From positions 64,001 to 128,000 of the IMG/VR virus record IMGVR_UViG_3300036861_001052: DNA of 64,000 nucleotides; one strand, given 5' to 3'. Numbering within the stretch: the stretch's first letter is position 1; every line of letters starts with the position of its first letter. Under the pieces are notes generated by a model. It was given only the letters and a program-made list of their open reading frames with translations, was not told where the DNA came from and ran no database searches. This document shows, in pieces, positions 716-60,435 of the stretch. Source of the stretch: a virus. Position numbers and translations under genes: made by a program.

Positions 716-2419
716 GTGTCAGACGAGCTCGAGCTGTACGACATCCCGCCGGCCTTCCAGAACCGGCTGCTCCGTTGGCTCGACAAGACCGGCGAGTCGC
801 TGACGATCACCGCGTTGTTCAAGGACCTGAGAAGCACGCCCTCGGTTCCGCACTTCCTGGTCACGCCGAAAGACGCGCGCGATGGATCGTCGGAACACCG
901 GAGTCTCGAGCACGCCCTGAACCACGCCATGGGCTCACGAGCCGAGACCAGGTACATCGGCAAGAAGTTCGAGAAGCGAGTGCACGCCTGGCTCGCCGAA
1001 CACGAGGGACGCATCGTGATCCGCGGCGCTGGAAACGAATTCAGGCTGACGCTGTCGGTCCCGGGAGCGAGCGTCGAGGTCTCGGACGAAGATCTCGAAG
1101 TCGCGCTCGTCATCGCGGAAGACGAGCTAGAGCTCCAGAGCATCGAGCCGGAGCCCGAGACGCGCGAGGCGATGACTCGCGCAGCGCCAACGCGCGCCGC
1201 GAGAACGCACCGGATGACGTTCGAGGACGAGCCCGAGACAGTTGCCGCGCCGACACGGATGGCCGAGACGCGCGCCACGGCGACGAAGCTCTTCGGCGGC
1301 GACACCGATCGCACGATGCGCGAAGCCGGCCTCGAGCCGAACCGTGACTACCCGGAAGAGTTTGCGCAGGGTGCGCGCTGCGGTCACCTCGAAGGCAAGG
1401 GCCGCGCGGGACAGTACGTGATCGGCGAAGAGATCCGGCTCGCCGAAGAAGCGACGGACGCGCAGGGCCTTCCGCGCGCCGCGGCGCGCGAGTGGTGCGC
1501 CGGCTACACGCACGGCTACCGGCGAGCCGCCGAGGGCTCCGAGCTCGAACGCGACTACTGCGAGCCGTGGCTCGAAGAGAATTCTCGCTGGTCTCGCGCG
1601 TACGTGAACAGCTTGCCGGACTCGGCGTTCTTGCACGTCGAGCCAGGCGGAAAGAAAGACCGCATCGGTCGCAGTCACCCGCTCTCGCTCCGGCACTTGC
1701 CGTACAAGAATCGCTCGGGTCGCATCGACCGCGCGCATCTTCGCGCGGCGCTCTCGCGCTCGCATCAGGCAAAGACGAAGCTCCCCGCGCGGGTGAAAGA
1801 GCAAGCGTTCCGGCGGGCGCAGGAGCTCTACCGGCGCGAGTACGGCGAGGCCGACTACGAACTTGCCGCAAACGCTTCCCGACTGCCTCGGCCACGGCCG
1901 AGCATGCGCGGCCGGGAGCTTCCGTCGACGACCGAGCTCGTCGAGCGCGAAGAAGCGCGCACTCGGCGAGAGCAGAGGCCGTTCGATCCGGAAGAGCGGC
2001 GGGAGCCCTACGCGCGCACGCACCACTTTGCCGTGAACCGGCATGCCGACCGGGACATGCTTCGCGAGGTAGCGCTCGGCGACACTGGCTACGTGCTCGT
2101 GCTCTGGGACACGCACAACGTCGACCGGATGGGTAAGAGCATCCTCGGCTATGCGTTCTACGCACCCGATGAAGAAGCACCGCTCTTCGAGGGCGAGGAC
2201 TACGGCGCCTCGCCCATGCACGCGATCGACTCGGACGAATCGGTGCGCGGTCTCATCGGCTTTCTGACGCTGAGGCCGGGCGACACCGATCGCGAATACT
2301 TCTCCGGCTACACGGAGCGCCAGCTCGACTTCGCGCGCGGTGACGCCGAAGGCCTGCAAGAGTTCGGGATGGAGCCCGAGGCCGGATACGAGCAGCCTCC
2401 GCTCGTCGACGTCCGATGA
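716..2419 (+). CDS. Multidomain protein with LPDSAF...RHLPY...DRAHLRAALSR module (DUF6582-like, tentative)
   Basis: Track ORF 629..2419; GTG 716 preferred because of the promoter; modules separated by LEPN, LEEN, LAAN, FAVN. Confidence 0.75.
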   Translation: MSDELELYDIPPAFQNRLLRWLDKTGESLTITALFKDLRSTPSVPHFLVTPKDARDGSSEHRSLEHALNHAMGSRAETRYIGKKFEKRVHAWLAEHEGRIVIRGAGNEFRLTLSVPGASVEVSDEDLEVALVIAEDELELQSIEPEPETREAMTRAAPTRAARTHRMTFEDEPETVAAPTRMAETRATATKLFGGDTDRTMREAGLEPNRDYPEEFAQGARCGHLEGKGRAGQYVIGEEIRLAEEATDAQGLPRAAAREWCAGYTHGYRRAAEGSELERDYCEPWLEENSRWSRAYVNSLPDSAFLHVEPGGKKDRIGRSHPLSLRHLPYKNRSGRIDRAHLRAALSRSHQAKTKLPARVKEQAFRRAQELYRREYGEADYELAANASRLPRPRPSMRGRELPSTTELVEREEARTRREQRPFDPEERREPYARTHHFAVNRHADRDMLREVALGDTGYVLVLWDTHNVDRMGKSILGYAFYAPDEEAPLFEGEDYGASPMHAIDSDESVRGLIGFLTLRPGDTDREYFSGYTERQLDFARGDAEGLQEFGMEPEAGYEQPPLVDVR

Positions 2420-3366
2420 CGGGCTACGCGCTTGGCCTCGTCGTAAACCCGAAGCTCGCGCGGCCCGTCCTCGCGTACTGGGACGGCCGCGAGATGGATA
2501 TCTTGGCGCTCGACGACGACGAGTGGCTTTCGATCGGCACGGGCTACTACGGCGACACCGATGATCCGGCAACGAGCGCGACCGGCTATCCTCGCTCGCA
2601 CACGCCGAGCGGCGTCCAGATCAAGAAGCAGGGCTACGGCACGTGTCTCTACACGGCGCTCTGCTTGGGCGCGCACCACAACGCCGACGGGGCGCTCAGG
2701 CTCTTTCGCTACGGCCCCGACGGCGACGGCATCTCGTCTGAGTCGAACAGCCGGAGCACGGAGGCAGATCACTGGTGGAGCCGCGCTAAGGAGCTCGGCC
2801 TGGCTAGCGAAGTGGTCGAAGATCAGACCGAGGAGGGCGTCGACGTCACGAGCGAGCTCTCGGACATCGTCTCGGGTCAAGAGGTCGACGGGAAGCTCGT
2901 GAGCTACGTGAACACGATCAACGTCGACGTCGAAGCGAGCGTGACGGCCGACGTGTACCCCTACGACAACGCCGAGGACCACGACCTAGTGCTTGCCGAA
3001 TTCGTCGCGGACATTCCGTTCACGGGCGTCGAGTCGCTCTGGACGATGATCCGAGACCGAGAGTCCACGGACTTGAAGCTTCTGGTGCACGCCGAGCGGA
3101 TCCTCGCGTGCGACGTCCGAGGCCTCTCGGTCTCCGCCATGAACCTCCTCGGCATCCTCGCCGAGCGCGGCGGCGCGCCCGAAGAAGATCTCCATGCGCT
3201 GCGTTTCCGGTGGGAGCACGGGCTCGACCCTGGGGCGCCCGTGAAGCAGATGCGCCTGCCGTTCAAGGCAAATAGCTCCGAGGCCCGGCAAGCGACTGAG
3301 ATCCTAAAGGCCACCAAAATGCTGCGGTCCGAGACCGGTTGGGACGACCTCCGCACGCTGCCGTAG
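2416..3366 (+). CDS. GNAT-like acetyltransferase domain protein
   Basis: KKQGYGTCLY resembles GNAT motif A; downstream S..A..WW pattern. Confidence 0.5.
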   Translation: MTGYALGLVVNPKLARPVLAYWDGREMDILALDDDEWLSIGTGYYGDTDDPATSATGYPRSHTPSGVQIKKQGYGTCLYTALCLGAHHNADGALRLFRYGPDGDGISSESNSRSTEADHWWSRAKELGLASEVVEDQTEEGVDVTSELSDIVSGQEVDGKLVSYVNTINVDVEASVTADVYPYDNAEDHDLVLAEFVADIPFTGVESLWTMIRDRESTDLKLLVHAERILACDVRGLSVSAMNLLGILAERGGAPEEDLHALRFRWEHGLDPGAPVKQMRLPFKANSSEARQATEILKATKMLRSETGWDDLRTLP

Positions 3367-3400
3367 ACAGACGGCGCCCCGGTCGGATATTCTCCGGGCC

Positions 3401-7475: not shown

Positions 7476-8012
7476 ATGGCGATCGACAAAGATCTCGAGC
7501 AGGCACTGGAGGCGCTCGCGCGCCGCGAGGGAAAGTCCGGAAGTGAGCTCCTCGGAGAGCTCCTCGGCGGCCGCGCGAAGGAGGCAGTAGCCGAAAAGGC
7601 GCCGCTCGCGCGCTCCGGGCCTGACGACAGGGAGCTCGGGCGCGCCGAGGCCATCGAGCGGCACCACGCGAACGATTTCCCCGGAACGCCGGTCGTCCGC
7701 TACCGGGAAGACCCCTACGGCGAGACCGCGGAAGAAGCGAAAGAGCGCTGGCTCGCCGAAGAAGCGGAGCTCATCGACGGCGTCCACGGGCTCGGAGGGC
7801 AGAGTGCAGGCGGGATTTTCGGCGACGCGGCGGTCGCGACCAGCATTTACGACCCGGGGGCCGAGCACCGAGCGCTAAGCCAGGCCGGCCACGCAGGGAG
7901 CCTCCGCCTGGCGCGCGTTCTCGAGCGGATCGAGCAGCGGCTAGACGCCGCGGAGCCCGCTCGGGCGTTGCCTGGCGGAAAACGCCGCCAGCTTGGCCGC
8001 GGAAACCGCTAA
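7476..8012 (+). CDS. Hypothetical protein with possible N-terminal RHH
   Basis: AAGGAG RBS; IDKDLEQALEALARREGKSGSELL. Confidence 0.65.
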   Translation: MAIDKDLEQALEALARREGKSGSELLGELLGGRAKEAVAEKAPLARSGPDDRELGRAEAIERHHANDFPGTPVVRYREDPYGETAEEAKERWLAEEAELIDGVHGLGGQSAGGIFGDAAVATSIYDPGAEHRALSQAGHAGSLRLARVLERIEQRLDAAEPARALPGGKRRQLGRGNR

Positions 8013-8027
8013 GCCCCCGGAACCACC

Positions 8028-8435
8028 GTGAAAACCGGTATTCCACGTGAAGTCTGGCCGAACGTCCAGGCCGCGGGCACCCTGATTTTCGCCGCCGACA
8101 CGGGGCGCGTACTTCTGCTCGACCGGACGGACGAGGGAGGGTGGTGTCAGCCTGGAGGCCATCGCGAGCCGGGCGAATCGGCCTGGCAGACTGCGCAGCG
8201 TGAGCTTGAAGAGGAGACCGGCCTCGCCTTTACCGGCGAGCCGGCCGGCGTTTTGCCGATTGAGACGCCGGCAGGCTGGGACTACGCGGTCTTCGTGCTT
8301 ATTGTCCCGACAGAAGCGGCTCCGGTGCTGAATTTCGAGCATCGGGCCTACACGTGGGCAGATCCGGACGACTGCGGGCCGCATTTGCACCCGGGGACGG
8401 CGGCCGCGCTCGATTACGCCAGGAGAAACCGATGA
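8028..8435 (+). CDS. Nudix hydrolase
   Basis: Nudix box GGHREPGESAWQTAQRELEEETGL. Confidence 0.92.
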   Translation: MKTGIPREVWPNVQAAGTLIFAADTGRVLLLDRTDEGGWCQPGGHREPGESAWQTAQRELEEETGLAFTGEPAGVLPIETPAGWDYAVFVLIVPTEAAPVLNFEHRAYTWADPDDCGPHLHPGTAAALDYARRNR

Positions 8436-9739: not shown

Positions 9740-10273
9740 ATGGCAGACGGAGCGACGGAGAAGGAAGAAGCGGAGATCGAAGAGGGCGTGAGTCTCGAGG
9801 AGGAGTGCCGGACGCTCTTCACTGAAGTGGAAGAGGCAAAGTCGCGGCTCGGAAAGCTCGCGACGGCTGCCGAGGGGAATAACCTCCCGAACATTGCCGC
9901 GCTCTATCGGGAGATGAGCGGCACCGTGCTTTCGATCCTCTCCGACCTCACGGCGACGGTCGGCGGAGGCTTCGCGGATATCGAAGAGGACGTGGAGCGT
10001 CTCTACACGCGCGGCGGCGGAGACGAGCCGACCGAATCCGTGCTCCTCGAAGAGGACGGCAAGCGCTACGTCGCCTACCTCGAGCAAGTCCGCCGCCTGC
10101 TCGAAGAGCTCGAGCGTCAGGCCTCGGGGCAGGCCGAGCAAGCGGAGGTCTTCAAGACTCTTCTCCGGCTGACGGACGAGCTCCTCACGTTCACGAAAGA
10201 GATTACTGCCGAAGAGGACGAAGACGAGCCCGAAGCGGGCGAAGACGACGAGCCCGAAGCGGACGAGGACTGA
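9740..10273 (+). CDS. Acidic helical protein
   Basis: GGAG RBS; E/D-rich termini. Confidence 0.75.
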   Translation: MADGATEKEEAEIEEGVSLEEECRTLFTEVEEAKSRLGKLATAAEGNNLPNIAALYREMSGTVLSILSDLTATVGGGFADIEEDVERLYTRGGGDEPTESVLLEEDGKRYVAYLEQVRRLLEELERQASGQAEQAEVFKTLLRLTDELLTFTKEITAEEDEDEPEAGEDDEPEADED

Positions 10274-12801
10274 TGACGGAGCAGGACGCGGCATTGCCGC
10301 ATGAAGGCGCGAGGGAAGTCGACCGGCAGCTTCTTGCCGAGTGCAAGCGCTACAGCGTCCCGTACAAGTCGTGGCTCGAGATGTCGGTCGGAGAGCGGGG
10401 AGCGGTCAAGGCGAAGTACACCCGTGGGCTTCGTCACGAAGCGAAGCGCCGCGGCATCGACGACGACGAGTTCGTGAAGATGACCGACGAGGAGCGCGAC
10501 CGGGTGCGAGAAGAGTACCCGGAGAGGCCGCCCGGAAAGAGAAAGCCGCGGACTGTCGATGAGGTTGCTCAGGCGCACGCCGCGCGCGTTGCGGACGTGG
10601 TGGATCAAGATCTCTCGTCGCCGGGCCCCTACTCGCCTGCATCCGAGGTGCCGGCGATCGAGGAAGACCCCGCGCGGCGCGACAGGCCGACGCTCGACGA
10701 AGTCGTGCCTGTCGAAAACAAGGATCTGGTCGGATGGGAGACACCGCGGAATCTTCGTGACGTCTTCGCGCGCTACACGATCGGCGACGGCCAGCACTAC
10801 ATCCGGGTCGAGCGCATCGAGCCGCGAGTCTTCCAGCAGATCGCTACCTCGGGCTACCTCGGCGAGATCCGGGAGCCGCTCACGGAGGAAGAGTTTCACG
10901 CTTTCTACGGCGGGCGGATCTACGAGCTCAGCGTCTACGGTCCCGACACGCAAGGCAGGCGCGATCCCGTGACGGGGCATCCTCTCATCAAACCGAAGAC
11001 GAAGCCCTTCCGGTACACGGTGCCGATGTATCCCCCGAATCTCGCCGTGCTTCCGGGCACGAATCCGACGAAGAAGAAAAACGGAGATCCCATGCATCCC
11101 TTCTCCATGTTCCAGTCGCCTGTCCTTCCGACGACGCCGGCGGACGCATCCATGCACAAGTCGAACCTCGACTTCGTAGCGCAGGTCATCGAGCGCTCGG
11201 CCGAGGAGAGTCGTGAGCTACGAAAAGAGCTTCAGTCGAAAGGATCGGCCGACGTGGACGTCCTGCGTGTGATTGGTGACCAGAGTAAGAGCGTCGTCGA
11301 GCAGGCAAACCGCGCCTCTGAGGCGCGCGAGCGAAGCCTCCTCGACCAGCTCGAAAACGAACGCGAGCAGCGGCGCGAGCTCGCCGCAAAGCTCGACAAG
11401 CTCCAGGAGCAGATGTCGGCCGAGCCCCGGCAGAGCCCCGTGAAGGACGCGGTCGAGCTCATGAAGGTGACGAACCCCGCGCAGACCGCCGAGCAGCATC
11501 TCTCCCGCCAGAACGAGTCGCACCGCTCCGAGGTCGCGAGCCTGAAGGAAAGCCACCGGGACGCCATCGAGACCTTGAAGTCGACGCATCGCGACGCGAT
11601 CGAGACTATGAAGAGCCGCCAGGAGGAAGAGCTCAAGCGTCTTCGCGAGCGCGCGGACGAAATAGAGCGAAGCTACGGGCGCCGGCTCGAGGACGCGGAA
11701 AGGCGCCAGCGAGAGGTAGCACAAGAGCACAAGGATCAGATGGAGCAGCTCCGGCGGGACGAGCGGGCGGCAGCCGATCAGCGTGTGAAGGACACGGAGA
11801 AGCGTTTCGAGGACAGGATCAGCGATATCAAGCTCCAGCAGGAGCGCGAGCTACGAATGCAGGAGGAGCAGCACAAGACGCGGGTCGAGACGACCAAGAG
11901 CAATCTCGAGCTCCAGCTCTCGAACCAGAAGGAGCGCGTGAAGCGTCTCGAGGACGAGGTCAGCGAAGCGCGCGCGGAGCTCGCCGAGGCGGGAGATCCA
12001 GTGGCGGTCGTCGAGAAGCAGGAGAAGATCGCAAAGTCTCTCGGCTGGAGGAAAGAAGAGAAGGACGGGCCGCAGACGGCCGGGGAAAGATTTGCGGCGA
12101 CGGTCGGCATCGGCCTCGGCAAATCACTCGAGGACATGGGGACGTGGCTCCCGAAGGTTGCTGAGGCGTTTCGAAAGCAGCCGCTCGGGGGCCCGCCGGT
12201 TGGCGTGCCGCCGGGTCTGCCCGGGCGAAGGCCGGGGCCGCCGGGGCAGCGAGGACCGGGACCGGGACAGCGGCGAGCGGTCGCGTGGGCGACGCAGGGA
12301 TCGATCCCCATCACCGATCACCGCCCGAGCATGCCGCCCGAAGCGCCGCCGGCCGCGCCGCCTCCTCAGCCAGAGGCAGCGCCCGCGCCGCAGCAGCAAG
12401 CCGCGCCTCCGCCCGAGGCGCCTCCGCCAGCGGCCGCTCCGGCCGAGCCCGCGCCTTCCAATGGTGCGGCGCCGTACCCGGGAGGGATCCCGGAAATTCC
12501 GATGGAGTTCGTGCAGGCGTTCCGGACGGAAGTGGAGATGTCGATCGACGGCGGACGGAGCCCAGACGAATTCGCACGGCTCTTCGTCGAGCGGTTTCCC
12601 GATCCCGCGCGCGAGCTCGTCACGCTCTACAAGGCCGAAGATCTCATGAAGCTCGTCGAGTCCCTCCCGAACGGCCCCTCGAGCAACATCCTCCGCCGTG
12701 ACGGAAAGCGCTGGGTAGAAAAGCTCTGGGCCGCGATCCCGATCGAGTACGCAAAAATGGCGAGCGCTGCAGCGGCGGCTCAGGCATCATCCGGCGTATG
12801 A
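10273..12801 (+). CDS. Large coiled-coil, Pro-rich protein
   Basis: About 300 aa of E/K/R/Q heptads, Pro/Ala linker, helical C-terminal domain. Confidence 0.8.
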   Translation: MTEQDAALPHEGAREVDRQLLAECKRYSVPYKSWLEMSVGERGAVKAKYTRGLRHEAKRRGIDDDEFVKMTDEERDRVREEYPERPPGKRKPRTVDEVAQAHAARVADVVDQDLSSPGPYSPASEVPAIEEDPARRDRPTLDEVVPVENKDLVGWETPRNLRDVFARYTIGDGQHYIRVERIEPRVFQQIATSGYLGEIREPLTEEEFHAFYGGRIYELSVYGPDTQGRRDPVTGHPLIKPKTKPFRYTVPMYPPNLAVLPGTNPTKKKNGDPMHPFSMFQSPVLPTTPADASMHKSNLDFVAQVIERSAEESRELRKELQSKGSADVDVLRVIGDQSKSVVEQANRASEARERSLLDQLENEREQRRELAAKLDKLQEQMSAEPRQSPVKDAVELMKVTNPAQTAEQHLSRQNESHRSEVASLKESHRDAIETLKSTHRDAIETMKSRQEEELKRLRERADEIERSYGRRLEDAERRQREVAQEHKDQMEQLRRDERAAADQRVKDTEKRFEDRISDIKLQQERELRMQEEQHKTRVETTKSNLELQLSNQKERVKRLEDEVSEARAELAEAGDPVAVVEKQEKIAKSLGWRKEEKDGPQTAGERFAATVGIGLGKSLEDMGTWLPKVAEAFRKQPLGGPPVGVPPGLPGRRPGPPGQRGPGPGQRRAVAWATQGSIPITDHRPSMPPEAPPAAPPPQPEAAPAPQQQAAPPPEAPPPAAAPAEPAPSNGAAPYPGGIPEIPMEFVQAFRTEVEMSIDGGRSPDEFARLFVERFPDPARELVTLYKAEDLMKLVESLPNGPSSNILRRDGKRWVEKLWAAIPIEYAKMASAAAAAQASSGV

Positions 12802-13577
12802 CACCGACCATCGCGATTCTGAACCGGACCACGATCCTCGACGACGCGGCCTTTCATCCGGTCGTCTCCGCGCTTCAAAAGCAGGTCTCGGGAGACTTCG
12901 CGCCGCTCTGGAGGCGAGACGCCTCGCTCGTGCACGTGGCTAAGAGCGAGACGCCGCCTCCGGGAGCCTGGCAGGTCGTCGTCTCAGACACGATCGCGAT
13001 GGCGGGCGCGCTCGGGTATCACGATTTCACGCATGCGGGCCTTCCGATCAGCAAGGTCGCGGCCAAGACTCACGGCAAGTGGACGGTGACGTTGTCCCAC
13101 GAGGTGCTCGAGATGCTCGGAGACCCCGACATCGTGAGGGCGGCGTTCATACAGACGAGCCCCTTTCGGGCGCTCGTCTACGCCTACGAGAATTGCGATC
13201 CGGTCGAGGACGATCGCTTCGGCTACGACATCGACGGCGTGACTCTCTCGGACTTCGTGACCGAGGAGTGGTTCGAGCCGGGCAGGTTTGGTGTGAAGTT
13301 TTCGTTTCGAGACACGGTCAAGCGTCCGCTGACGCTCGCGCCAGGCGGCTACATTTCTGTCTACAGGACGCCGGGCATCGGGCGCTGGATACAAGTCACG
13401 GCACGCGAGGACACGTACGCCGTGCACGAGGGCAATGTCAGCGAGATCACGCGCATGTACGCCGGGGAGCAGCACGGCTCCTACACGAATCTCTACCGGA
13501 ATCTCCCGAACGTCGGCTCCCGCCGCGAGCGCCGGAACCGGTCGCGCATCGAGTGGATGCGAAGCGACACCCCGTGA
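12798..13577 (+). CDS. Putative zincin-like metalloprotein (HExxE)
   Basis: LGYHD...SHEVLEMLGDP...AYENCDPVE...LSDFV. Confidence 0.55.
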   Translation: MTPTIAILNRTTILDDAAFHPVVSALQKQVSGDFAPLWRRDASLVHVAKSETPPPGAWQVVVSDTIAMAGALGYHDFTHAGLPISKVAAKTHGKWTVTLSHEVLEMLGDPDIVRAAFIQTSPFRALVYAYENCDPVEDDRFGYDIDGVTLSDFVTEEWFEPGRFGVKFSFRDTVKRPLTLAPGGYISVYRTPGIGRWIQVTAREDTYAVHEGNVSEITRMYAGEQHGSYTNLYRNLPNVGSRRERRNRSRIEWMRSDTP

Positions 13578-13597
13578 GCTACTCGGCGCGGCCTGCC

Positions 13598-13810
13598 ATG
13601 AAGCCCGAGACGCGGCAGCGTCTCATGCGGGACTACGCCTTCGCGCGAAAGCTCGTCGAGCACGGGCACCGCGCGGGCACGAGTAAGCACGGCGTCGTGG
13701 TTTCGTACAATGGCTACGTCTGGCGGGTCGTGGGTGGTGACGCCGTGCATCCTTCGCTCATGATCCTCCACGGCGTCCGCGAGGAGGACGTGTGCTGGAT
13801 GAGGCCGTGA
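13598..13810 (+). CDS. Hypothetical protein
   Basis: MKPETRQRLMRDY... Confidence 0.55.
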   Translation: MKPETRQRLMRDYAFARKLVEHGHRAGTSKHGVVVSYNGYVWRVVGGDAVHPSLMILHGVREEDVCWMRP

Positions 13811-13822
13811 CGGGCTAGCCCC

Positions 13823-13852
13823 TTGCCAGAGTCTCGGCCTCGGCAGTAAACT
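13823..13852 (+). promoter_or_regulatory. Sigma70-like promoter opening the structural block
   Basis: TTGCCA-18nt-TAAACT, 8 nt before ATG 13861; preceded by palindrome GGGCTAGCCC. Confidence 0.55.
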
Positions 13853-13860
13853 CCCGGGAC

Positions 13861-14394
13861 ATGTACCAGAGCACGGGACTTGGTCGCGGCGGCGGAGGTG
13901 GTGGGCACGGCGGCGGCGGTCATGGCGGGGGAGGCCACGGCGGTGGGGGTCATGGTGGCGGAGGCGGTGCTCGCGCGGGCGGTGGAGGCGGAGCGCGTGT
14001 CAGCGGAGGCGGCGGAGCGCGTCACGGCGGCGGCGGCCATCACGGTGGTCACCACGGCGGACGCGGCCGCGGTCCCACGAACGTTTTCGTGACCGACGGC
14101 GGCTGGGGACCTGGATGGGGCTGGGGGCCCGGCTATGCGGAGACCGTGTACGTCGACTCGTCGTGCGCTGTCGTCGACGACAGCGGCGTCTGTGTTTGTA
14201 AGTCTTTGAATCTCGACGGCAGCTGCGCGCGGCCCATCATCGGCTGGGTCGGCGGTCGCCCGGTCTACGGACTCGGCGCGGACGAAGAGAAGGCATCGGT
14301 CGCGCCCTGGATCGCCGGCGGGATCTTGCTCGCGCTTGCCGTCGGCGCGTACGCCCTCGATAAGAAGGGCCCAGCTCCGCTCCGTAGCTCGTAA
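13861..14394 (+). CDS. Gly/His-rich tail-anchored protein
   Basis: GGGGH repeats, Cys cluster, VYGLGA, C-terminal TM + KK. Confidence 0.75.
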   Translation: MYQSTGLGRGGGGGGHGGGGHGGGGHGGGGHGGGGGARAGGGGGARVSGGGGARHGGGGHHGGHHGGRGRGPTNVFVTDGGWGPGWGWGPGYAETVYVDSSCAVVDDSGVCVCKSLNLDGSCARPIIGWVGGRPVYGLGADEEKASVAPWIAGGILLALAVGAYALDKKGPAPLRSS

Positions 14395-14403
14395 TCGCGG
14401 ACC

Positions 14404-14655
14404 GTGCAGCTCAAGCGGTGCCGAGGAGTCTGCGGCGAAGAGTGGCCGATCGAGTCCTTCTCTCGCGATCCGGGTAACTCCGACGGTCGCCGGAACGAAT
14501 GTAACGCTTGCCGGCAGGAGCGGCGGGCAGCGCTCGCTCTGGGCGCAGCGCGGAAACGGCCGTGGCAGCACAAATTCGAGCGGGGCTATGACTACACGAC
14601 CGAGCGAGAGCGGCGGCGGGGCGAGGCTGCGGCGCGGCGGCGCATGATCGCATAG
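14404..14655 (+). CDS. Zn-finger protein resembling HNH endonuclease N-terminus
   Basis: CRGVC...FSRDPGNSDGRRNECNAC; no nuclease domain follows. Confidence 0.55.
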   Translation: MQLKRCRGVCGEEWPIESFSRDPGNSDGRRNECNACRQERRAALALGAARKRPWQHKFERGYDYTTERERRRGEAAARRRMIA

Positions 14656-14692
14656 GGGTTCTGGCCGGGAATTGCCCCGCCGGCGCCTCTAC

Positions 14693-14721
14693 TTGAGCTT
14701 CGGCCGGTGTCCCGGTAGAGT
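14693..14721 (+). promoter_or_regulatory. Sigma70-like promoter
   Basis: TTGAGC-17nt-TAGAGT. Confidence 0.45.
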
Positions 14722-14762
14722 GAAGGCTGCAGGGCGCTCCCGACGCCGGCCTCGGGAAAGTT

Positions 14763-15383
14763 GTGCGCTCGCTCCTCCACCATCAACCGGCGACCTTCAC
14801 ACCAGGCTATCCTGGTGCTCTCGGTTGGTATGGCGAGCCGATGGCGGGGACGCTCTCGAGAAATCCCCCGAACACGCTCGCGGGCTTTCAGGGGCACCCC
14901 GACACGCTTCGAGCGATGGTCCGCGCAGCGCACGGACCGCGGGGCGAGCAGAGCATCCTCGTCCGTAGCGTGACCGAGGAAGTGGTCGGGGACCTTCAGC
15001 CGAAGGACTACCTCGGTGAGATCTTGGCGATTCGCTACTGGGTGACCGAGCACATCCGGTACGTGAACGATTCTCTCCACGTCGAGATCGTGAAAGACCC
15101 GCAGCGAGTCATCGAAGAGATCCTCGCGCGCGGCCGCGCGGCGGAGGACTGCGACGGCATCGCTCTCATGATTGCCGTCATGTGCTTGCAGGTCGGACGC
15201 GTGGCGGAGTTCGTGGTGGTGGGCTTCGGCGAGCCGGGGCACTACAGCCACGTCTTCGTGAGAGTGAAGGAGCCACGGAGCGGCCAATGGATCGTGTGCG
15301 ATCCGGTTGCGGGCTCCGACGAGCGCGGCATGCTCGACCGCGTGACGACGTTTTACACGAAGAGCCTAGACGAGGCGGCCTAA
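14763..15383 (+). CDS. Transglutaminase-like (papain-fold) cysteine enzyme; candidate maturation protease
   Basis: WVTEHIRYVND, EDCDG (Cys), YSHVF (His), VCDP (Asp). Confidence 0.85.
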   Translation: MRSLLHHQPATFTPGYPGALGWYGEPMAGTLSRNPPNTLAGFQGHPDTLRAMVRAAHGPRGEQSILVRSVTEEVVGDLQPKDYLGEILAIRYWVTEHIRYVNDSLHVEIVKDPQRVIEEILARGRAAEDCDGIALMIAVMCLQVGRVAEFVVVGFGEPGHYSHVFVRVKEPRSGQWIVCDPVAGSDERGMLDRVTTFYTKSLDEAA

Positions 15384-16105
15384 TGTCGAGCAGGTTCCAG
15401 AGTCTCAGGCCTCCGTACCCGGTCTACGAGTCGCAACCGATCTTCGGCGGGGACTTGCCGACGATCGACGAGATCGGTCCGCCCGACGTCCGGGCTTCCG
15501 CCACGAACCCCTACTACGACATGTATCGTGGTGCGCACGGTCGGAATTTCTCTGGCCTCGGAGTAACCAACATGATGAGTGCAGACCGCGGTCTCCAGGA
15601 TTACCCGAACGAGCTAGATCTCCTGGCGGAGATGGACGACGTGCAAGGCAACGGCGTCTTCGATCCGCACGGCTCGCACGGAAACATCCATCCCGACGAG
15701 GGCGTCTTCGCCGATCACGAAAACCTCCCGGGCTATCTCGTCCGGGACGAGTACTACGCCCCGAGCCAGGTCATCGACGGCACGACGGGCGAGCCCGTGA
15801 TGTACGTGCCGGGCGGAGCCGTGGCGATCGATCAGTCGCAGCTCGACACCTACCGCGACCGGCAGCTCCTCTGGGAGATCCCGCCCGGGATGAGCGCTGA
15901 GCACCGAGAGGCGCCGCCGGACGGCGAGACGTGGATCCCACACGAGTACTCGTGGCCCATCTCGGGCATCGGCGAGGAGATTTCCCCGCCGGGGAGCGAC
16001 ACGGCGTCGCTTCCGGGGCAGAAGAGCAAGGTGCCGCTGATTGCGTCGTTCGCGATCATCGGCGTCGCCGTCGGAGTCTTCGTCGCAACACTGGTGAAGA
16101 AATGA
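15383..16105 (+). CDS. Tail-anchored putative virion protein
   Basis: FSGLG, ISGIG, C-terminal TM + KK. Confidence 0.75.
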   Translation: MSSRFQSLRPPYPVYESQPIFGGDLPTIDEIGPPDVRASATNPYYDMYRGAHGRNFSGLGVTNMMSADRGLQDYPNELDLLAEMDDVQGNGVFDPHGSHGNIHPDEGVFADHENLPGYLVRDEYYAPSQVIDGTTGEPVMYVPGGAVAIDQSQLDTYRDRQLLWEIPPGMSAEHREAPPDGETWIPHEYSWPISGIGEEISPPGSDTASLPGQKSKVPLIASFAIIGVAVGVFVATLVKK

Positions 16106-28260: not shown

Positions 28261-29028
28261 CAGCCGTTTTACGACACGCTCATCCGAACCTCCGGTCTCG
28301 GCGGTTCCATCCCCAAGGTGAATCAGCGGACCTCGCTGTTCACGAACCAGGCTCGCCAGGACGACATCAACGCCCTGACGAACCTGCCGAACGGTTCGAC
28401 GCTCCCGTCCGACCAGAGCCACGTGACGCTCGCGCTTCGCGTGTTCATCTGGTTCCGCAATCCGCAGATCCGCGCAAGCGGCTTTGCGAACGGTGCGATC
28501 AAGAACAACGGCGACTTCTCCCAAGCGGGAGCGGCGGCGTTCTTCTCGCAAGGCGGAGTCGACCCGAACGGCGCGACCGCGGGCCCCGGCGCCTTCAACT
28601 ACCCGGGCTCGATCGAGGACGTCTACCGCCTGTACTGGCAGTCGGAAGAGCAGCTTCACTGGAGCTACGGCACCGGTGACAAGTTCTCGATCACGAACAT
28701 GCCGACGAAGTACTTCCCGGACGGCGGTGGCCTCTGGGGTGACCTCGGTGGCTCTTCGGATCTCATCCACTTCAACAACGGCACGCCGGACCACACGGCA
28801 ATTCTCCGGCTCGCGCGCGCGATCCTTCTGCCTCCCCGGCAGAACATCAAGTGCGCCGCCGAGATCGTGCCCTTGCCCGACGGTGGAAACGCCCAGATCG
28901 CTGGATCGACCGTGACCGGCAACGGCCGGAACATGCTGTCGCTCCAGGACAACCTGAACGCGACCGACGGGATCAACAAGGTGATTCAGTTCACCTTCGA
29001 CGGTCTCTTCGCCCGCGACGTTCAGTAG
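28261..29028 (+). CDS. Putative major capsid protein, exon 2 (candidate single jelly-roll; 267 aa spliced)
   Basis: In-frame join gives RERVH/QPFYDTLIR; beta-rich; structured leader and 3' hairpin. Capsid role is inference. Confidence 0.65.
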   Translation, partial: QPFYDTLIRTSGLGGSIPKVNQRTSLFTNQARQDDINALTNLPNGSTLPSDQSHVTLALRVFIWFRNPQIRASGFANGAIKNNGDFSQAGAAAFFSQGGVDPNGATAGPGAFNYPGSIEDVYRLYWQSEEQLHWSYGTGDKFSITNMPTKYFPDGGGLWGDLGGSSDLIHFNNGTPDHTAILRLARAILLPPRQNIKCAAEIVPLPDGGNAQIAGSTVTGNGRNMLSLQDNLNATDGINKVIQFTFDGLFARDVQ

Positions 29029-35371: not shown

Positions 35372-35992
35372 TTGAAAGACATCTTCGCAACTTTCGGTCG
35401 TAAGGTTTCCCGGATCCCCTGGGGGGCCGTTGCGGGCGTTGTCGTCGAGCAGCTCCATGCGCAGGGCGGCGTCGCGGGGCAGGTTCTCGCGCAGCTCCAG
35501 GAGTGGGCGGGTCATCTCGCCGCGAACGCCGTCCGTGAGTGGCCCGGAACGATCGCGAGTCACGCTCCCTGCGCCTGCCCGAACGTAGCTTCCGGCACAC
35601 CGAAGAAGTGCCACGCCTCGGCCGTCGTCGTCTGCGACATCTGCAATCGCAAATGCTGCCTCGCGCACGCTCGGATCGATTACCTAGCCGGCGCCATCTG
35701 CGAGATCTGCATCGGCGAAGCCAAGGCGCGGGCACGGGCGGCGGGACCAAAAGCTCCGGGTCAGGCGGCTCCGAAAAAGGACGTCGACCGGGCGTTCAGG
35801 ATCTTGGATCTCGGTCGCACGGCGACCTGGGAGGAGATCAAGAAGCGCCACCGCGAGCTCGTCTTCAAGCACAACGCCGACCGGCCGCAGACGGACAAGA
35901 TGCGAGCCCAGAACACGGAGCGCCTGAAGAAGGTGAACTGGGCGCTCGAGGTCCTACGGAAGTTTCATGAGGACAAGAAGGAGGCCGCGTAG
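35372..35992 (+). CDS. Zn-finger plus J-like domain protein (HPD replaced)
   Basis: CDIC...CLAH...CEIC; AFRILDL...ATWEEIKKRHRELVFKHNADR...LKKVNWA. Confidence 0.75.
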   Translation: MKDIFATFGRKVSRIPWGAVAGVVVEQLHAQGGVAGQVLAQLQEWAGHLAANAVREWPGTIASHAPCACPNVASGTPKKCHASAVVVCDICNRKCCLAHARIDYLAGAICEICIGEAKARARAAGPKAPGQAAPKKDVDRAFRILDLGRTATWEEIKKRHRELVFKHNADRPQTDKMRAQNTERLKKVNWALEVLRKFHEDKKEAA

Positions 35993-38170: not shown

Positions 38171-40927
<2,757 letters not shown>

Positions 40928-40978: not shown

Positions 40979-42457
<1,479 letters not shown>

Positions 42458-44540: not shown

Positions 44541-44810
44541 ATGCCGAGATCACATCACCTCGACTGGGAGACTCGAGCCGAGTGTCTGGTCGCCATTGCC
44601 GACTCGTACGGCGAGTACCCGCCGGTCGGCGAGACGCCCGAGTGGTGGAAGGCGTTCGAGAAGTGGTACCAGGAAAAGAAGAAGGACGCGCGTGACGGCG
44701 TCGTCTCGGTCGTCCTTCGTACCGAAGCGCGTCCCTACGAAGACGAGGCCGAAGAGGAAGAGGACGAAGACGAGGACGAAGACGAGGACCCCGAGGACGA
44801 GCCGGAGTGA
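44541..44810 (+). CDS. Small protein with acidic tail
   Basis: GGAGG RBS; EDE repeats. Confidence 0.65.
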   Translation: MPRSHHLDWETRAECLVAIADSYGEYPPVGETPEWWKAFEKWYQEKKKDARDGVVSVVLRTEARPYEDEAEEEEDEDEDEDEDPEDEPE

Positions 44811-46174
44811 CGCTCCCCGGCGGATTCGAGGGTCTCGAGCGCTTCCGCGCCCCGAGCTCCATCCTGGAGGGCGACGGTAAGCCTCCGGATCCGACCGAGG
44901 CGGAGCTCGAGAGAGCTCTCGTCGCCCCTGGCGGCGACGCGCTCCTTCCCGCCGGCATCGTCTACCAGGCGGGCTACGAGCAGGCGGGAGACGGTCTCGC
45001 GCGCCACGCGCGCGCGCAGGCGCGCGCCCTCGCGCGCGCGGGGGTGGCCGTCTCTCTTCAGTCCCTTCCCACGTCACGCATGATGCTCGAGGACGAGATC
45101 GAGGAGAGCGTCCGGCGCGAGGTGCAGCACTTGCGCATGACCTCTGTTGGCTCGGCGCCCATCGCGATCCGGCAGATCATTTTACACAGCCACCGGTATC
45201 TCGAGAACGTGGTCGCGCCCGCGGGAGCGCGCCTCGCGGACTTCGACAACGAGATGAAGGTCTACCGATCGACCGTGGTCTACACGTCGTGGGAGCGGAG
45301 CACGGTGCATCCAGAGGTCGTGGAGATCTTGAACCGATGCGGCCGCGTCTGGGTCCCCTGTAACATGAACTACAACGTCTTCCGCAATGCCGGCGTTAGA
45401 AACGTGGACGTAATCCCCTGCCCGTTCGATCCGGAGACGTCGCTCACGGCCGGCGTCGCCGCGCCGCGCGGCAAGGAGACGGCGCCCTCGGGCAAGCGCT
45501 TCTACGCGATCGGAAAGTGGGAGCCGCGGAAAAACTACCACGCGCTTATCGGAGCGTTCCTGTCGGCCTTCACGATGGAGGACCGGGCGTCGCTCTTTCT
45601 GAAGACGCACGAGTGGGGCGCATGGAAGGACTACCCGTCGATCGGCGAGAGCGTCGAACACTGGCTGTCGGATTTCCTGGTCAGGGATAACGGCTGGACG
45701 CGGGACAATTACGGTAAACGCTTGCGCGTCGTGACGAAGAAGCTCCCGGACGAGAAGATCCTTGCGATTCATAGGGACAACAACATCTACGTCACGTGCT
45801 CTCACGGCGAGGCGTGGGATCTCCCAGCCTTCGATGCGCGGGTCGCCGGTAACCGCTTGGTCTACACGGGCTGGGGCGGAGCCGAGGACTACGCCGCCGC
45901 GGAGGACATCAGGATCCTCGTCGAGCACGGTAAGGTTTGTGAGCCAGTGCATCCGGGCTACGGGTGGGAGTCTGGCGCGGAGTGGGCGAGGTGCCCGGTT
46001 GCGGATATCATGCATGCGCTTGTGGAGGCGGAGCCGCCGGCCCGGCGGATGCTCCCTCCTGATCTCTACCGGGACTTCGGAAGCCACGCCGTCGGCCGTC
46101 GTATGCTCATGAGCCTTAATAACGTGTCGGCCGGCACGGTAGAGGATCTTCTCGTGCAGGGAGGGTTCGGGTGA
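44807..46174 (+). CDS. Glycosyltransferase, GT-B/GT4-like
   Basis: IGKWEPRKNY..LI.AF; YVTCSHGEAWDLPAFDA. Confidence 0.88.
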   Translation: MTLPGGFEGLERFRAPSSILEGDGKPPDPTEAELERALVAPGGDALLPAGIVYQAGYEQAGDGLARHARAQARALARAGVAVSLQSLPTSRMMLEDEIEESVRREVQHLRMTSVGSAPIAIRQIILHSHRYLENVVAPAGARLADFDNEMKVYRSTVVYTSWERSTVHPEVVEILNRCGRVWVPCNMNYNVFRNAGVRNVDVIPCPFDPETSLTAGVAAPRGKETAPSGKRFYAIGKWEPRKNYHALIGAFLSAFTMEDRASLFLKTHEWGAWKDYPSIGESVEHWLSDFLVRDNGWTRDNYGKRLRVVTKKLPDEKILAIHRDNNIYVTCSHGEAWDLPAFDARVAGNRLVYTGWGGAEDYAAAEDIRILVEHGKVCEPVHPGYGWESGAEWARCPVADIMHALVEAEPPARRMLPPDLYRDFGSHAVGRRMLMSLNNVSAGTVEDLLVQGGFG

Positions 46175-47827: not shown

Positions 47828-48054
47828 GCGAGTGGCACGTCGTTCCCTTCGTTCAGAAGGTCCGGATGTACGCTCTCGCGAAGTTGAGCGGGCACGACCA
47901 ATATCAGCCGACCGGAGAATTCGTCTGCACCACATCGGACATTGCTCGCGTCACAGACGATGACTGGCGCTCATCGCGATGCAGGACATATCACCGGTCG
48001 CGTGCAGTGGCGGAAGCGCACGCGCGCAAACTGAATGCGCGGAATCAAAAATGA
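47824..48054 (+). CDS. Hypothetical protein
   Basis: ATGA-coupled. Confidence 0.6.
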   Translation: MSEWHVVPFVQKVRMYALAKLSGHDQYQPTGEFVCTTSDIARVTDDDWRSSRCRTYHRSRAVAEAHARKLNARNQK

Positions 48055-49160
48055 CGAAGTCCGTGCGGCTCTACGGCTACCTCCATGGCGAATCGTCCTT
48101 CGCGCAGGTAACGCGCGGTCTCCAGCGGACGCTCGAGGCGATGGGCGAGCTCGCCGGGCTCTATCCGGTCGATATGGACCCGGAGCTCGCACCGAGAGAG
48201 CTCCGCGGCGGCGAGAGCGCGCCTCTCTCCTTGAACTGCGGCTCCCCCGAGGGACTTCTCCGTGCGCACCGCTCCGGCGATCACAAGGAGCACTGGCTGC
48301 TTCTCGCCCCGAACAGCCAGGGCCTTCCGCATGGCTTCGTGGAGGGGCTCTTGAAGACGTCGGATATCTTGCCGCGCGGGACGCTCTCCGGAGGGATCCT
48401 CGCGCCGAGCCGGTGGGCGGCAAGCGTGTGCCAGGACGCGTTCCCCGAAAAGAAGGTCCTCGTCGCGCCGCACGGCGTCTCCCCCGAGGTCCACTCCGTG
48501 AATCCGAAGGATCTCGCGGCGAGCCGCCGAGACTTCAAGAACGGCCTCTTCGACGTCCTTCACATGGCGAGCACGGAGGCGGACAGGAAAGGCACTCGGC
48601 AGCTCATGCGCGCGTGGGCACACTTGAAAAGCCGACGGGAGCTACCGAGCGTGGCGCGCCTGCACATCATGATGAACCCGACGCACTGCTCGAAAGTGAA
48701 GTGGTGGGCAGCGGATCTCGGTCTCTCCGAAAACGACTACAGCGTGGCCCCTGGCCTCGTCCACGATCGCTACCAGGTTGCCAATCTCTACCGGGCCATG
48801 CACCTCGTCTGTCAGCCGTCGCGGGCGGAGGGCTTCGGCCTGGTCCCGCTCGAGGCGCTCGCCTGCGGGACTCCCGTGGCGATCACGATCTCGACGGGGC
48901 ACTCGGAGTACGCGTCGACGGGCCTTCCGGGCCTCATGGAGGTGCCCCACGGCCCCTTGGGTCCGATGGACGATTACCCCGGGTCGACGGCGCCCACGGT
49001 CACGGCGGAGGCGATTGTCCATGCCCTTTGGAGTGCGTACGATAGGTGGGAGAGTCTCTCGGCGCAGGCAGCCGACAACGCCGCCCCACTCGCCGAGGAG
49101 TGGTCCTGGGAGAAAAAGAACCGCCCTGCCCTCACGAAAATGATCGCGGAGAGCCCATGA
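48051..49160 (+). CDS. Glycosyltransferase, GT4
   Basis: RKGT..L..AW; PSRAEGFGLVPLEALACGTPV. Confidence 0.92.
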   Translation: MTKSVRLYGYLHGESSFAQVTRGLQRTLEAMGELAGLYPVDMDPELAPRELRGGESAPLSLNCGSPEGLLRAHRSGDHKEHWLLLAPNSQGLPHGFVEGLLKTSDILPRGTLSGGILAPSRWAASVCQDAFPEKKVLVAPHGVSPEVHSVNPKDLAASRRDFKNGLFDVLHMASTEADRKGTRQLMRAWAHLKSRRELPSVARLHIMMNPTHCSKVKWWAADLGLSENDYSVAPGLVHDRYQVANLYRAMHLVCQPSRAEGFGLVPLEALACGTPVAITISTGHSEYASTGLPGLMEVPHGPLGPMDDYPGSTAPTVTAEAIVHALWSAYDRWESLSAQAADNAAPLAEEWSWEKKNRPALTKMIAESP

Positions 49161-57788: not shown

Positions 57789-57790
57789 GA

Positions 57791-58021: not shown

Positions 58022-58071
58022 AGGTGTTCCGTCCTTCCGCGGATCAGGCCGCAACCGTGCTTCATTCTCGC

Positions 58072-58293: not shown

Positions 58294-58312
58294 ACCTCCG
58301 TAGCGTCCTGCT

Positions 58313-58639: not shown

Positions 58640-58815
58640 CTGCGAACTCCTGTTCGCGCTCTCTTGGTTGTCGCCTCTTGGTAGCGGCGAGCGACGTGCC
58701 TATCGAGGTCATCACTAGGCTTACGGAACGCCCAGATGCCGCGGCCGACATGTACCAACAGCCCTGCCTTTTTCAGGCGCTCAACAGCCCGCAATTCGCT
58801 TTTGCTTGGCTTCAT
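58636..58815 (-). CDS. Small hypothetical protein
   Basis: VERLKKAGLLVHVGRGIW, wHTH-like. Confidence 0.45.
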   Translation of the reverse strand: MKPSKSELRAVERLKKAGLLVHVGRGIWAFRKPSDDLDRHVARRYQEATTKRARTGVRR

Positions 58816-58897
58816 CTCTTGCCACCGAGCCAGACCGCCAACGTACAGACGAACGTGGCTAACAGTCCGCCGACCAGAATTCCTAGGGCCAGGTCGC

Positions 58898-59428: not shown

Positions 59429-59700
59429 GAGAGCCTTTGTCTTATCGCCCGCTGTAGGGTTTGCACGTCGGCCGGGATGGGCTCGTCCTTGGGCCAGGGC
59501 TCGCGCTGGAGAGTCTCTCCTGTGTAGACGGAGACGCCCCCGCACTGGATGCAGACGCTCAGATCTCCGGCGGCCGGGTAGCGCGTGTGGAAGCCGGTGG
59601 CCCGGTCTTGTTTGTCTCCACAGTACGGGCACGCGGCCTCAGGCACGCGCACGCTCGGCTTCAGCTCACGGCGGACGGGGTCGGACATGGTGGGACTCAT
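59425..59700 (-). CDS. Zn-finger protein
   Basis: CPYCG...CIQCG. Confidence 0.65.
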   Translation of the reverse strand: MSPTMSDPVRRELKPSVRVPEAACPYCGDKQDRATGFHTRYPAAGDLSVCIQCGGVSVYTGETLQREPWPKDEPIPADVQTLQRAIRQRLS

Positions 59701-59908
59701 TGAGAGCCAGATCAGCGAGGCGGCTTCTGACGCGCACAGCTAGTTTCAGTAGGTCGCTCCGGAGACCGTCCGGGAGCGGGAGCGCTGTCCGCTCGATTTC
59801 TTCGATCGCGGCAAGCAGGCCGAGCCGGTAGCCGGTTCGGAGCGCCTCGTGCATGACGGGCGGGTAGGCGTCCGAGAGGAGGTCGCCGAGGCTCTCCTTC
59901 GCGGTCAC
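59666..59908 (-). CDS. Hypothetical protein
   Basis: GTGA-coupled, GGAGG RBS. Confidence 0.5.
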   Translation of the reverse strand: MTAKESLGDLLSDAYPPVMHEALRTGYRLGLLAAIEEIERTALPLPDGLRSDLLKLAVRVRSRLADLALNESHHVRPRPP

Positions 59909-60435
59909 CCTGCCCTCCGGAGCGGCGTCACGCCGATCGTTTCCTTGCTGATGCCGCCGCGCTGGATTTCCACGATGACCTCTTCCTGCTTGAGCCTCGT
60001 AGCGATCTCCTCGCCGAGCTCGATCATCTGCTGCCGGAACTCCTTCACGGGCGAGCCCGCGAGATTCAGGATGATGATCTGAGAGCCCTGCTCGTCGACG
60101 ACGGACTGGTCACGCTTGCTCGTGTAGAGGCCGCGCTGGTAGAGAAACGTCGCGTCGGGGGTGCCGACCTGAGCCTTCCGGACGCGCTTGACGATACGGA
60201 CGACGTCACCCATCTTCCACCGCGGCTTCTCACCGACGTTGAAGCCGACGAAGATCCGCGCGGCGTAGATCGGCTGGCGGCTCGACCAGCCGGCGGGGTT
60301 TTCGACGTAGGCGTTGCTCCTGCCCTCGAGCGTCAGGCGGCCGTTCGGGCGAAAGAATCCGACGTCGCCGTTGGGGTTCTGCCAGGAGAACCGGCGCGTG
60401 TCGGCGGGGACTGTCATGTAGGCAGAGCGGGTCAT
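59905..60435 (-). CDS. DUF3574 / SAM-lyase-like ferredoxin-fold protein (tentative)
   Basis: ARIFVGFN...ATFLYQRGLY...VDEQGSQIII...IATRLKQEEVIV. Confidence 0.5.
   Translation of the reverse strand: MTRSAYMTVPADTRRFSWQNPNGDVGFFRPNGRLTLEGRSNAYVENPAGWSSRQPIYAARIFVGFNVGEKPRWKMGDVVRIVKRVRKAQVGTPDATFLYQRGLYTSKRDQSVVDEQGSQIIILNLAGSPVKEFRQQMIELGEEIATRLKQEEVIVEIQRGGISKETIGVTPLRRAG

Follow-up and report, generated by a model that had tools for sequence, protein, structure and literature searches.

The Arg-rich protein and its asparagine motif

The 64,000-nt stretch analysed here (hereafter the window) comprises bases 64001-128000 of the virus record IMGVR_UViG_3300036861_001052, a sequence of 138,414 bp with direct terminal repeats and 65% G+C, and carries an open frame (P0001; 24816-27272, plus strand) for a protein of 818 amino acids (aa) whose Arg-rich half is punctuated by a repeated asparagine motif. 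Gene prediction with our own codon-usage caller gave 238 genes; two open reading frames (ORFs) that the caller had shortened were restored, the 818-aa ORF being one of them. From its N-terminus the protein runs through a basic domain and membrane-type helices to a Gly-rich repeat tail. The Arg/Lys-rich, motif-bearing domain, delimited by composition, spans aa 1-497 (24816-26306, plus strand; 152 R and 47 K) and includes a core of helix and beta structure at about aa 100-320, and it is followed by hydrophobic helices at aa 490-612 (26283-26651, plus strand), presumed to be a membrane anchor. An AF2 model built from 41 sequences had a mean predicted local distance difference test (pLDDT) value of 63, being confident at aa ~100-320 (long helices and a small beta domain, with pLDDT 87-96 for ~100-310) and at aa 490-610, where it places three long hydrophobic helices (490-523, 549-572 and 577-602; pLDDT 79-91), with the Arg-block regions and Gly-rich tail modelled poorly. 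Foldseek comparison of this model with solved structures gave no match at E ≤ 0.001, while VIA-align returned generic helical-bundle rows only (Z ≤ 6.7, aa 480-615). One block of the basic domain is conserved as GPYRR..DP..GR..SY.YR..IP.WA..GA.

A homologue search with aa 490-818 retrieved 126 proteins at E ≤ 0.001, of which the 120 listed are 460-830 aa long; among these listed matches, all possess a basic N-terminal domain, and their contigs reach up to 134 kb, several exceeding 100 kb. Scanning with the family alignment also located syntenic orthologues at eight related virus loci. The public gene call for the window (P0244; 26289-27272; 100% identical) covers only the last 327 codons, starting at M492, and our own caller made the same choice. 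Because gene calls shorten the ORF in this way, the basic domain is largely invisible in annotated databases, and it is probably missing from many database annotations. A search for shorter relatives found 103 proteins of 64-436 aa covering the C-terminal half; most of the 92 that are at least 270 aa long open with a Met within or close to the junction of the basic and membrane parts, one of them being the window's own gene from M492. These short relatives are gene-caller truncations or contig ends, and therefore bear neither for nor against a natural break at N489. A few relatives lie on contigs binned into metagenome-assembled genomes assigned to Pirellulales (two), Pseudomonadota and Pseudomonadales, a weak hint of the host; the contig binned with Pseudomonadota is 122,730 bp long and is probably a whole virus genome.

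Within aa 1-497 there are 13 Asn residues, 11 of which have Tyr, Phe, Leu or Met three positions upstream (YRAN, LMEN, MKAN, MTSN, YRRN three times, FVPN, LVAN, YEEN and LAAN), with SSVN and HVAN as the exceptions, while none of the seven Asn in the C-terminal 321 aa does so. The count of 11 among 13, first reported in a first-pass annotation of the window, is exact. These four residues make up 48 of the 497 positions of the basic half (9.7%; binomial p = 4.4e-10 for 11 of 13). The enrichment was confirmed by a blind scan of every anchor residue with at least eight copies against ten offsets and ten residue classes, in which the top association was that of Asn with Y/F/L/M at offset -3 (-log10 p of 9.45), a value reached in 0 of 1000 shuffles (maximum 5.28).

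All 13 sites are read on the plus strand. The first, YRAN (Asn33, followed by Pro; 24903-24914), lies in a conserved non-basic N-terminal peptide and aligns as Phi-R-x-N-P-x-G-V-T, where Phi stands for the bulky hydrophobic residue, in most homologues that have this N-terminus. The peptide as a whole (aa 29-48; window 24900-24960) reads Phi-R-x-N-P-[MIL]-G-V-T-x-[LIM]-[AS]-x-[VI]-N-G-R-G-A-Y in most of these homologues, and its second conserved Asn, that of SSVN (Asn44, followed by Gly; 24936-24947), has no bulky residue at -3. LMEN (Asn73; 25023-25034) is followed by MKAN (Asn93; 25083-25094), invariant in 12 sequences, by MTSN (Asn100; 25104-25115), which opens a model helix at 100-118, and by a first YRRN (Asn145; 25239-25250), nearly invariant in the same 12. 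FVPN (Asn322; 25770-25781) is the conserved F-x-P-N that ends the folded core, with F319 and N322 invariant in the 12 sequences, and it precedes a model helix at 323-356. The remaining sites are LVAN (Asn429; 26091-26102), YEEN (Asn442; 26130-26141), LAAN (Asn456, followed by Pro; 26172-26183), the exception HVAN with His at -3 (Asn469; 26211-26222), and two further YRRN (Asn483, 26253-26264; Asn489, followed by Gly, 26271-26282), the last of which stands right before the membrane-type helices. Only these last two YRRN units fall within a recent DNA duplication (18 nt repeated twice, 94%), while an older 46-nt repeat, D1 (74%), links YEEN in its first copy with HVAN in its second.

In the alignment of 41 sequences the basic half has a single invariant residue, N489, at the junction of the basic and membrane parts, and among the 12 closer sequences 5 of the 13 Asn are invariant or nearly so, compared with 28 of the 484 other residues (Fisher p = 8e-4). 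In the AF2 model six of the 13 Asn (N73, N100, N322, N429, N483 and N489) are predicted to lie 0-2 residues ahead of a helix start, mostly at pLDDT <50; most motif sites fall in regions of the model below that value.

The pattern holds across the family. In 121 proteins, whose basic domains total 57,245 residues and 1830 Asn, Y/F/L/M occupies position -3 of 52% of the Asn against a background of 10.7%, and inclusion of V, I and W raises these values to 65% and 18.2%. By residue, enrichment at -3 was 7.3-fold for M, 5.9-fold for F, 4.9-fold for Y, 3.2-fold for L and 2.2-fold for V, with none for I (1.0-fold) and depletion of R (0.4-fold) and K (0.2-fold). No comparable excess was seen at other offsets from Asn in these domains, and no other anchor residue behaves alike, the fraction with Y/F/L/M at -3 being 0.09 for Ser, 0.10 for Thr, 0.09 for Gln, 0.13 for Gly, 0.17 for Asp, 0.21 for His and 0.10 for Glu, compared with 0.52 for Asn. 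In the C-terminal parts of the same proteins 161 of 884 Asn carry the motif, with 148.8 expected. The signal persists among 12 representatives with basic domains less than 30% identical (82 of 166 Asn, 19.5 expected), 7 of which are individually significant at p < 0.01, and is weak (<35%) in only 5 of the 121 proteins. In 21 of the 121, Val is the preferred residue at -3 while K/(K+R) is unchanged, a shift that fits a co-evolving pocket.

Individual proteins have 7-25 sites, several homologues multiplying one unit by tandem repeats, and successive sites avoid a spacing of 1-4 aa and occur at about twice the expected frequency at 5-18 aa. The sites conserved in position are those of the N-terminal Phi-R-x-N-P-x-G-V-T...V-N-G peptide, F-x-P-N322 and Y-x-R-N489; those between them vary in number and place, and the motif is therefore re-created and not merely inherited. 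After the Asn, Gly is enriched 2.0-fold and Pro 1.7-2.8-fold, and Pro is enriched 3.3-fold at -1, where Gly is not; the commonest residues after Asn are R, A and K, Gly following 170 of 1116 sites. Ser/Thr is not enriched at +2, and N-glycosylation was rejected on this ground. Phi-x-x-N is a real short linear motif of one protein family, with Phi being M, F, Y or L, or V in one sub-lineage, and not Ile. Both the Asn and the offset of -3 are specific, the motif keeps to the basic domain, and throughout the lineage it is conserved as well as created anew.

Genome setting and candidate enzymes

The genome uses GTG and TTG starts and overlapping stop-start junctions and encodes a DnaB helicase, and by this gene style its host is prokaryotic. 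A Pfam scan of the 87 window proteins matched only nine families, with no capsid, portal or terminase family among them, and in the whole 138-kb record neither Terminase_6N (PF03237) nor Phage_capsid gave a match, so that no HK97-type capsid family was found; a Pox_A32 search of the whole record yielded a P-loop trace only. The sole portal match among the window proteins (window 7968-8420; PHROG 'portal protein', phrog_15528) was rejected: it spans only family positions 494-648 and recurs in 14 of 14 control genomes, and therefore reflects a promiscuous domain and not a portal. Hardly any protein of the morphogenesis region resembles a known family. Pfam and PHROG returned nothing for the 818-aa protein, for the proteins starting at 716, 2416, 12798 and 59905, for an 842-aa protein or for ten further proteins of the structural module. 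Scanning viral contigs with the 842-aa protein found no relative, and a near-identity search of a phage collection with window 10273-15400 found no match.

Around 20 of the 43 proteins encoded at window 13,553-43,090 have a tail-anchored look, with a single hydrophobic 19-mer no more than ~35 aa from the C-terminus, which fits a membrane-containing particle. The 818-aa gene lies amid this block of small proteins, and so do the genes of three highly conserved ones (28318-29028, 29140-30132 and 30225-31046; 55-92% identity in relatives), the second of which, of 330 aa, fell only into unnamed clusters of the ESM Atlas. Six proteins of the record (window 38171-40927 and 40991-42457; genome 25225-26073, 34836-35873, 37251-38933 and 41172-42641) share their first ~125 aa, and all six match one stretch of the related locus L008; five are collagen-repeat fibre proteins by Pfam, and the shared start looks like a common anchoring domain with differing distal parts. 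Single Pfam matches among the window proteins include Cpn10 (GroES), DnaJ, NUDIX, a DSPc phosphatase and an Rv2179c-like exoribonuclease, together with an Acb2/Tad1 hairpin (E 8.8e-5), which represents a family associated with anti-defence sponges. The record also has four or more glycosyltransferase-like genes (genome 44038-47468; window 44807-46174; window 48051-49160), which encode a GT2 enzyme with TPR, a GT2 enzyme with a methyltransferase domain and two GT4-type enzymes, a number unusual for a prokaryotic virus.

The only recognisable protease-like enzyme near this module is a transglutaminase-fold Cys-His-Asp protein of 180 aa (14841-15383, plus strand), a candidate only as reader of the motif. 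Its gene had been called from 14763, and the start at 14841 is more likely because homologues are 175-190 aa long. It matches Transglut_core (PF01841) at E 1.3e-4 with 22.6 bits (cut-off 23), and about half of its listed homologues carry this domain; C104, H137 and D154 do not vary among 36 sequences of the family, and the AF2 model (pLDDT 93.7) has a papain-like core. Foldseek neighbours include the putative Cys proteases 3isr and 3kd4, the PNGase 2f4o and LapG (E 3e-5 to 1e-3), as well as the pseudomurein isopeptidase PeiP. The protein could act as a protease, as an amidase or as an isopeptidase; a search of Protein Data Bank sequences with the family profile gave nothing below E 0.3. The gene lies ~10 kb upstream of the 818-aa gene, in the same module, and is conserved in all relatives that cover the locus. 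Complex prediction for the 180-aa enzyme with aa 415-500 of the 818-aa protein gave a score of 0.02 (mark 0.32) and counts neither way.

Interpretation of the motif

Most likely the 818-aa protein condenses DNA in the manner of a protamine while tethered to a membrane within the particle, a role for which we infer both DNA binding and virion location. The interpretation that we favour, while rating it somewhat below an even chance, is that Phi-x-x-N marks recognition sites in this protein, most likely sites of cleavage after the Asn. Each motif would be read by a partner with one hydrophobic and one Asn-specific pocket. A dedicated pair of pockets, as opposed to generic capping or packing, is indicated because Asn is required, because position -3 is selective (Met far above Val, Ile not enriched) and because one lineage has switched to Val. 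Were the reader an endopeptidase, Phi would be its P4 and Asn its P1 residue; cleavage is the leading mechanism because conserved sites stand at domain junctions, N489 above all, and because of this P4/P1 geometry. Caspases, granzyme B, subtilisins and furin are classical cases of recognition governed mainly by P4 and P1, and the fixed P1 and hydrophobic P4 of the legumain or caspase type are found in the family as a pattern only, which is not evidence of cleavage. Cleavage at the invariant N489 would separate the basic domain from its anchor, and at the clustered sites, spaced 5-18 aa, it would liberate protamine-sized Arg blocks. The cutting enzyme might be the neighbouring transglutaminase-fold protein, some other viral enzyme that escaped recognition, or one supplied by the host. 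We put forward tentatively, and with less confidence than recognition as such, that these steps amount to polyprotamine maturation in a prokaryotic virus: a membrane-tethered Arg-rich polyprotein would be cut after Asn, during assembly or entry, by the 180-aa or an unrecognised enzyme, so that peptides are released and the nucleoprotein is detached at N489. We know of no virus with a protease specificity for cleavage after Asn in Phi-x-x-N.

Several observations weigh against cleavage. Pro is in excess after the Asn, 1.7-fold even when the conserved N-terminal site is left out, and many endopeptidases dislike Pro after the cut residue. In 26 of the 121 proteins the sequence begins M1-x-x-N4, where a cut would take off just four residues, although gene starts are uncertain. 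The known maturation proteases have several substrates, while no other protein of this virus bears the motif above chance. Pfam searches of the whole record at E ≤ 1 gave no match to legumain C13 (PF01650) or caspase C14 (PF00656), nor, in six frames, to adenain C5 (PF00770), of which a very divergent form is possible; Peptidase_S78 was likewise without a match in the whole record, the T4-type protease family not having been searched. Transglut_core is the only protease-type fold among the Pfam matches of the 87 window proteins, and the fold neighbours of the 180-aa protein include amidases and isopeptidases. The protein starting at 12798, which the first-pass annotation had offered as a second possible protease, was rejected, its ESM Atlas neighbours being unnamed viral proteins with no protease signal. 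Finally, the position of six Asn just ahead of predicted helix starts would suit a structural role equally well, and large cationic DNA condensers need not be cut, ascovirus P64 being an example (PMC6163548).

A close rival is therefore an uncut structural motif, which we regard as possible though doubtful: Phi-x-x-N would provide hinges, helix ends or DNA-contact units (a hydrophobic wedge with a base-contacting Asn) that divide the Arg-rich chain into DNA-wrapping cationic helices. Besides the failure of the protease searches and the predicted helix starts, the enrichment of Gly and Pro after the Asn speaks for it; Y-R-R-N-G-F, at the last site, resembles a helix end of the Schellman type, and the spacing of 5-18 aa resembles that of the neutral spacers between protamine Arg clusters. 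The helix boundaries on which part of this case depends are unreliable, however, with most sites below pLDDT 50. Generic helix-cap residues do not substitute for the Asn, as seen from the low fractions for Ser, Thr, Asp and Gly (0.09-0.17), whereas substitution would be expected of N-cap Ser/Thr/Asp or C' Gly positions. The lack of Ile enrichment beside the strong preference for Met is odd for simple packing, and the excess of Pro at -1 also tells against this explanation.

Docking without cleavage, in which repeated Phi-x-x-N motifs bind copies of an inner-shell, membrane or packaging protein and so tie or target the nucleoprotein to the particle, appears unlikely. It draws on the same evidence for a specific pocket as cleavage does (Asn only; M, F, Y and L but not I; the switch to V in one lineage), and multivalency fits the 7-25 sites per protein; against this, the analysis turned up no such partner, and the absence of the motif from other proteins means that it is no general targeting tag.

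Slightly less probable again is chemistry of the Asn side chain itself, be it self-cleavage at N-P or N-G by cyclisation, a charge switch through deamidation, or Asn-Lys isopeptide cross-links, any of which the 180-aa enzyme might catalyse. Cleavage at N-P is known from reovirus and FlhB. The strict requirement for Asn, the enrichment of Pro and Gly after it and the presence among the fold neighbours of the 180-aa protein of PNGase, whose amidase activity is directed at modified Asn, and of the isopeptidase PeiP all suit such chemistry. N-P and N-G are nevertheless a minority of the sites, R, A and K being commoner after the Asn, and known asparagine lyases need a folded catalytic environment, whereas the sites here lie in low-confidence, probably disordered sequence; thirteen new Asp, moreover, would hardly offset ~200 positive charges.

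The first-pass annotation had gone further and proposed a proteome-wide P4-hydrophobic/P1-Asn code marking all proteins packaged with the genome, including those starting at 716, 2416, 59905 and 14763, the giant recombinase and others. This reading is largely refuted, and we consider it very improbable. Every listed string is indeed present, and pooling the five named proteins gives 14 motif Asn of 39 with 6.5 expected, though they were picked post hoc out of 238. Singly, the counts are 4 of 10 for 716 (p = 0.08), 2 of 8 for 2416, 5 of 11 for the recombinase (p = 0.025), 2 of 7 for 59905 and 1 of 3 for 14763/14841, and no protein besides the 818-aa one survives correction for 238 tests, the recombinase being the best. 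Outside the 818-aa protein the proteome has 170 motif Asn of 912 with 150.0 expected, an excess at -3 (1.13-fold) no greater than at the neighbouring offsets -4 (1.12-fold) and -5 (1.13-fold), with 1.27-fold at +6.

Conservation points the same way. We aligned the 238 proteins with five near-whole related virus records and three further loci, which matched 160 of them. FRPN and YVEN-P of 59905 are kept in 3 of 3 aligned relatives each and LLPN of the recombinase in 4 of 4, yet over all aligned cells outside the 818-aa protein retention is 52.2% for motif Asn (224 of 429) and 49.3% for the other Asn (983 of 1994), beside an overall identity of 55.8%. LSRN-P, taken by the first-pass annotation as a leader of 14763, is not conserved, with the Asn kept in 2 of 6 relatives; of the 120 listed homologues, the 56 that can be anchored there show N, Q, K, V, A or T at the position, and the gene more likely starts downstream of it. 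Among 975 ORFs of the eight related records, the 818-aa orthologues rank 1-7 and 10 for the motif and are the only ones that stand out. Just two non-orthologous ORFs show a nominal excess: L051 10036-12022 (minus strand; 661 aa; 10 of 18, p = 1.4e-4) and L009 19677-20373 (231 aa; 5 of 7, p = 3.7e-4), the window counterpart of the latter (35372-35992) having 2 of 6. The gene at 716 adjoins that of the DnaB helicase, and the 1279-aa protein is a recombinase of the tyrosine type; neither product is known cargo, and we found no indication that these two or 2416 are carried in the virion. With no proteome-wide excess, no extra conservation and enrichment in related records confined to orthologues, the motif is the mark of one family and not of a class of cargo proteins; what stands of the earlier proposal is a functional recognition signal within the Arg-rich protein, as judged from family conservation, Asn specificity and the selective -3 position, and not a code that defines packaged proteins. 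Chance, or the residue of internal repeats and skewed composition, has a negligible claim: the 18-nt tandem duplication of the last two YRRN, the older repeat with YEEN and HVAN and the tandem repeats of homologues would suit it, but no shuffle reached the observed association, the twelve nearly unrelated basic domains hold 82 motif Asn of 166 instead of 19.5, and both the x-x residues and the positions vary from site to site.

Relation to known systems and significance

Cleavage after Asn in the 818-aa protein would find its nearest likeness in adenovirus core maturation. The adenovirus core proteins pVII and pre-mu (pX), which the adenovirus protease (AVP) matures, are Arg-rich like the 818-aa protein; they are DNA-condensing precursors, a role that is presumptive here, and their maturation products include very small basic peptides. 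These precursors have one or two sites, whereas the 818-aa family has 7-25 per protein together with a fused membrane anchor. AVP is encoded by the virus itself; here there is no C5 match, the 818-aa protein shows no sequence or fold similarity to the adenovirus system, and the host is prokaryotic. According to PMC4246237, AVP sites in core precursors have a hydrophobic P4, as in IVGL↓G and the M-R-G-G substrate; they also have Gly at P2 and at P1 or P1', and this Gly consensus is absent from the 818-aa family, in which Asn is fixed.

The first-pass annotation had drawn its parallel with the internal head proteins of T4 and the inner-body proteins of phiKZ, which are packaged alongside the DNA and cut back by the head proteases gp21 and gp175, at short consensus sites. 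Those sites end in Glu (L/I-x-E; S/A/G-x-E), and the proteases have the herpesvirus-assemblin fold. The 818-aa family differs in ending its motif in Asn, and Glu as an anchor shows no association with the hydrophobic residue (0.10 at -3).

Asparagine peptide lyases of virus capsids cleave each protein once, within a folded capsid subunit. The 818-aa protein is unlike them in its many sites, its low-complexity basic domain and its requirement for a hydrophobic residue at -3. Such lyases have been described in several virus capsids and, according to PMC3207474, cut exactly after Asn in virion proteins of nodaviruses, tetraviruses, reoviruses and others without a separate protease.

Enzyme-read motifs between Arg blocks have a further parallel in phosphorylation, and we know of no comparable regulatory modification of Asn in a virus core protein. 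The SPRRR repeats of hepatitis B core and the phospho-sites of baculovirus P6.9 reportedly tune nucleic-acid binding in this manner (compare PMC7412469 and PMC12159748); both are Ser/Thr sites, in contrast to the fixed Asn of the 818-aa protein. Ascovirus P64 resembles the 818-aa protein in being large (not <15 kDa), in its long basic repeat domain and in being the proposed condenser of 100-200 kb of double-stranded DNA, but it belongs to an insect virus, and the available part of PMC6163548 mentions neither cleavage nor an Asn motif nor a membrane anchor; the two proteins were compared by description only.

The protein belongs to a widespread, uncultured lineage of viruses of 110-140 kb (at least 120 homologues), a lineage that encodes a membrane-anchored protein of ~800 aa in which an Arg/Lys domain of 400-600 aa is punctuated by a strictly conserved two-position signal. 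To our knowledge, the prevailing view is that the DNA packed by bacterial viruses is essentially naked, and that core proteins of protamine type bearing maturation sites are characteristic of eukaryotic viruses, adenoviruses among them. A search of open-access papers and bioRxiv, including full text, found no such protein or motif described for a prokaryotic virus. The exact Asn positions given here provide precise, testable predictions. The motif may reveal either a new protease specificity or a new organisation of DNA inside the virion and, if it holds true, polyprotamine maturation would be the bacterial-virus counterpart of adenovirus core maturation.

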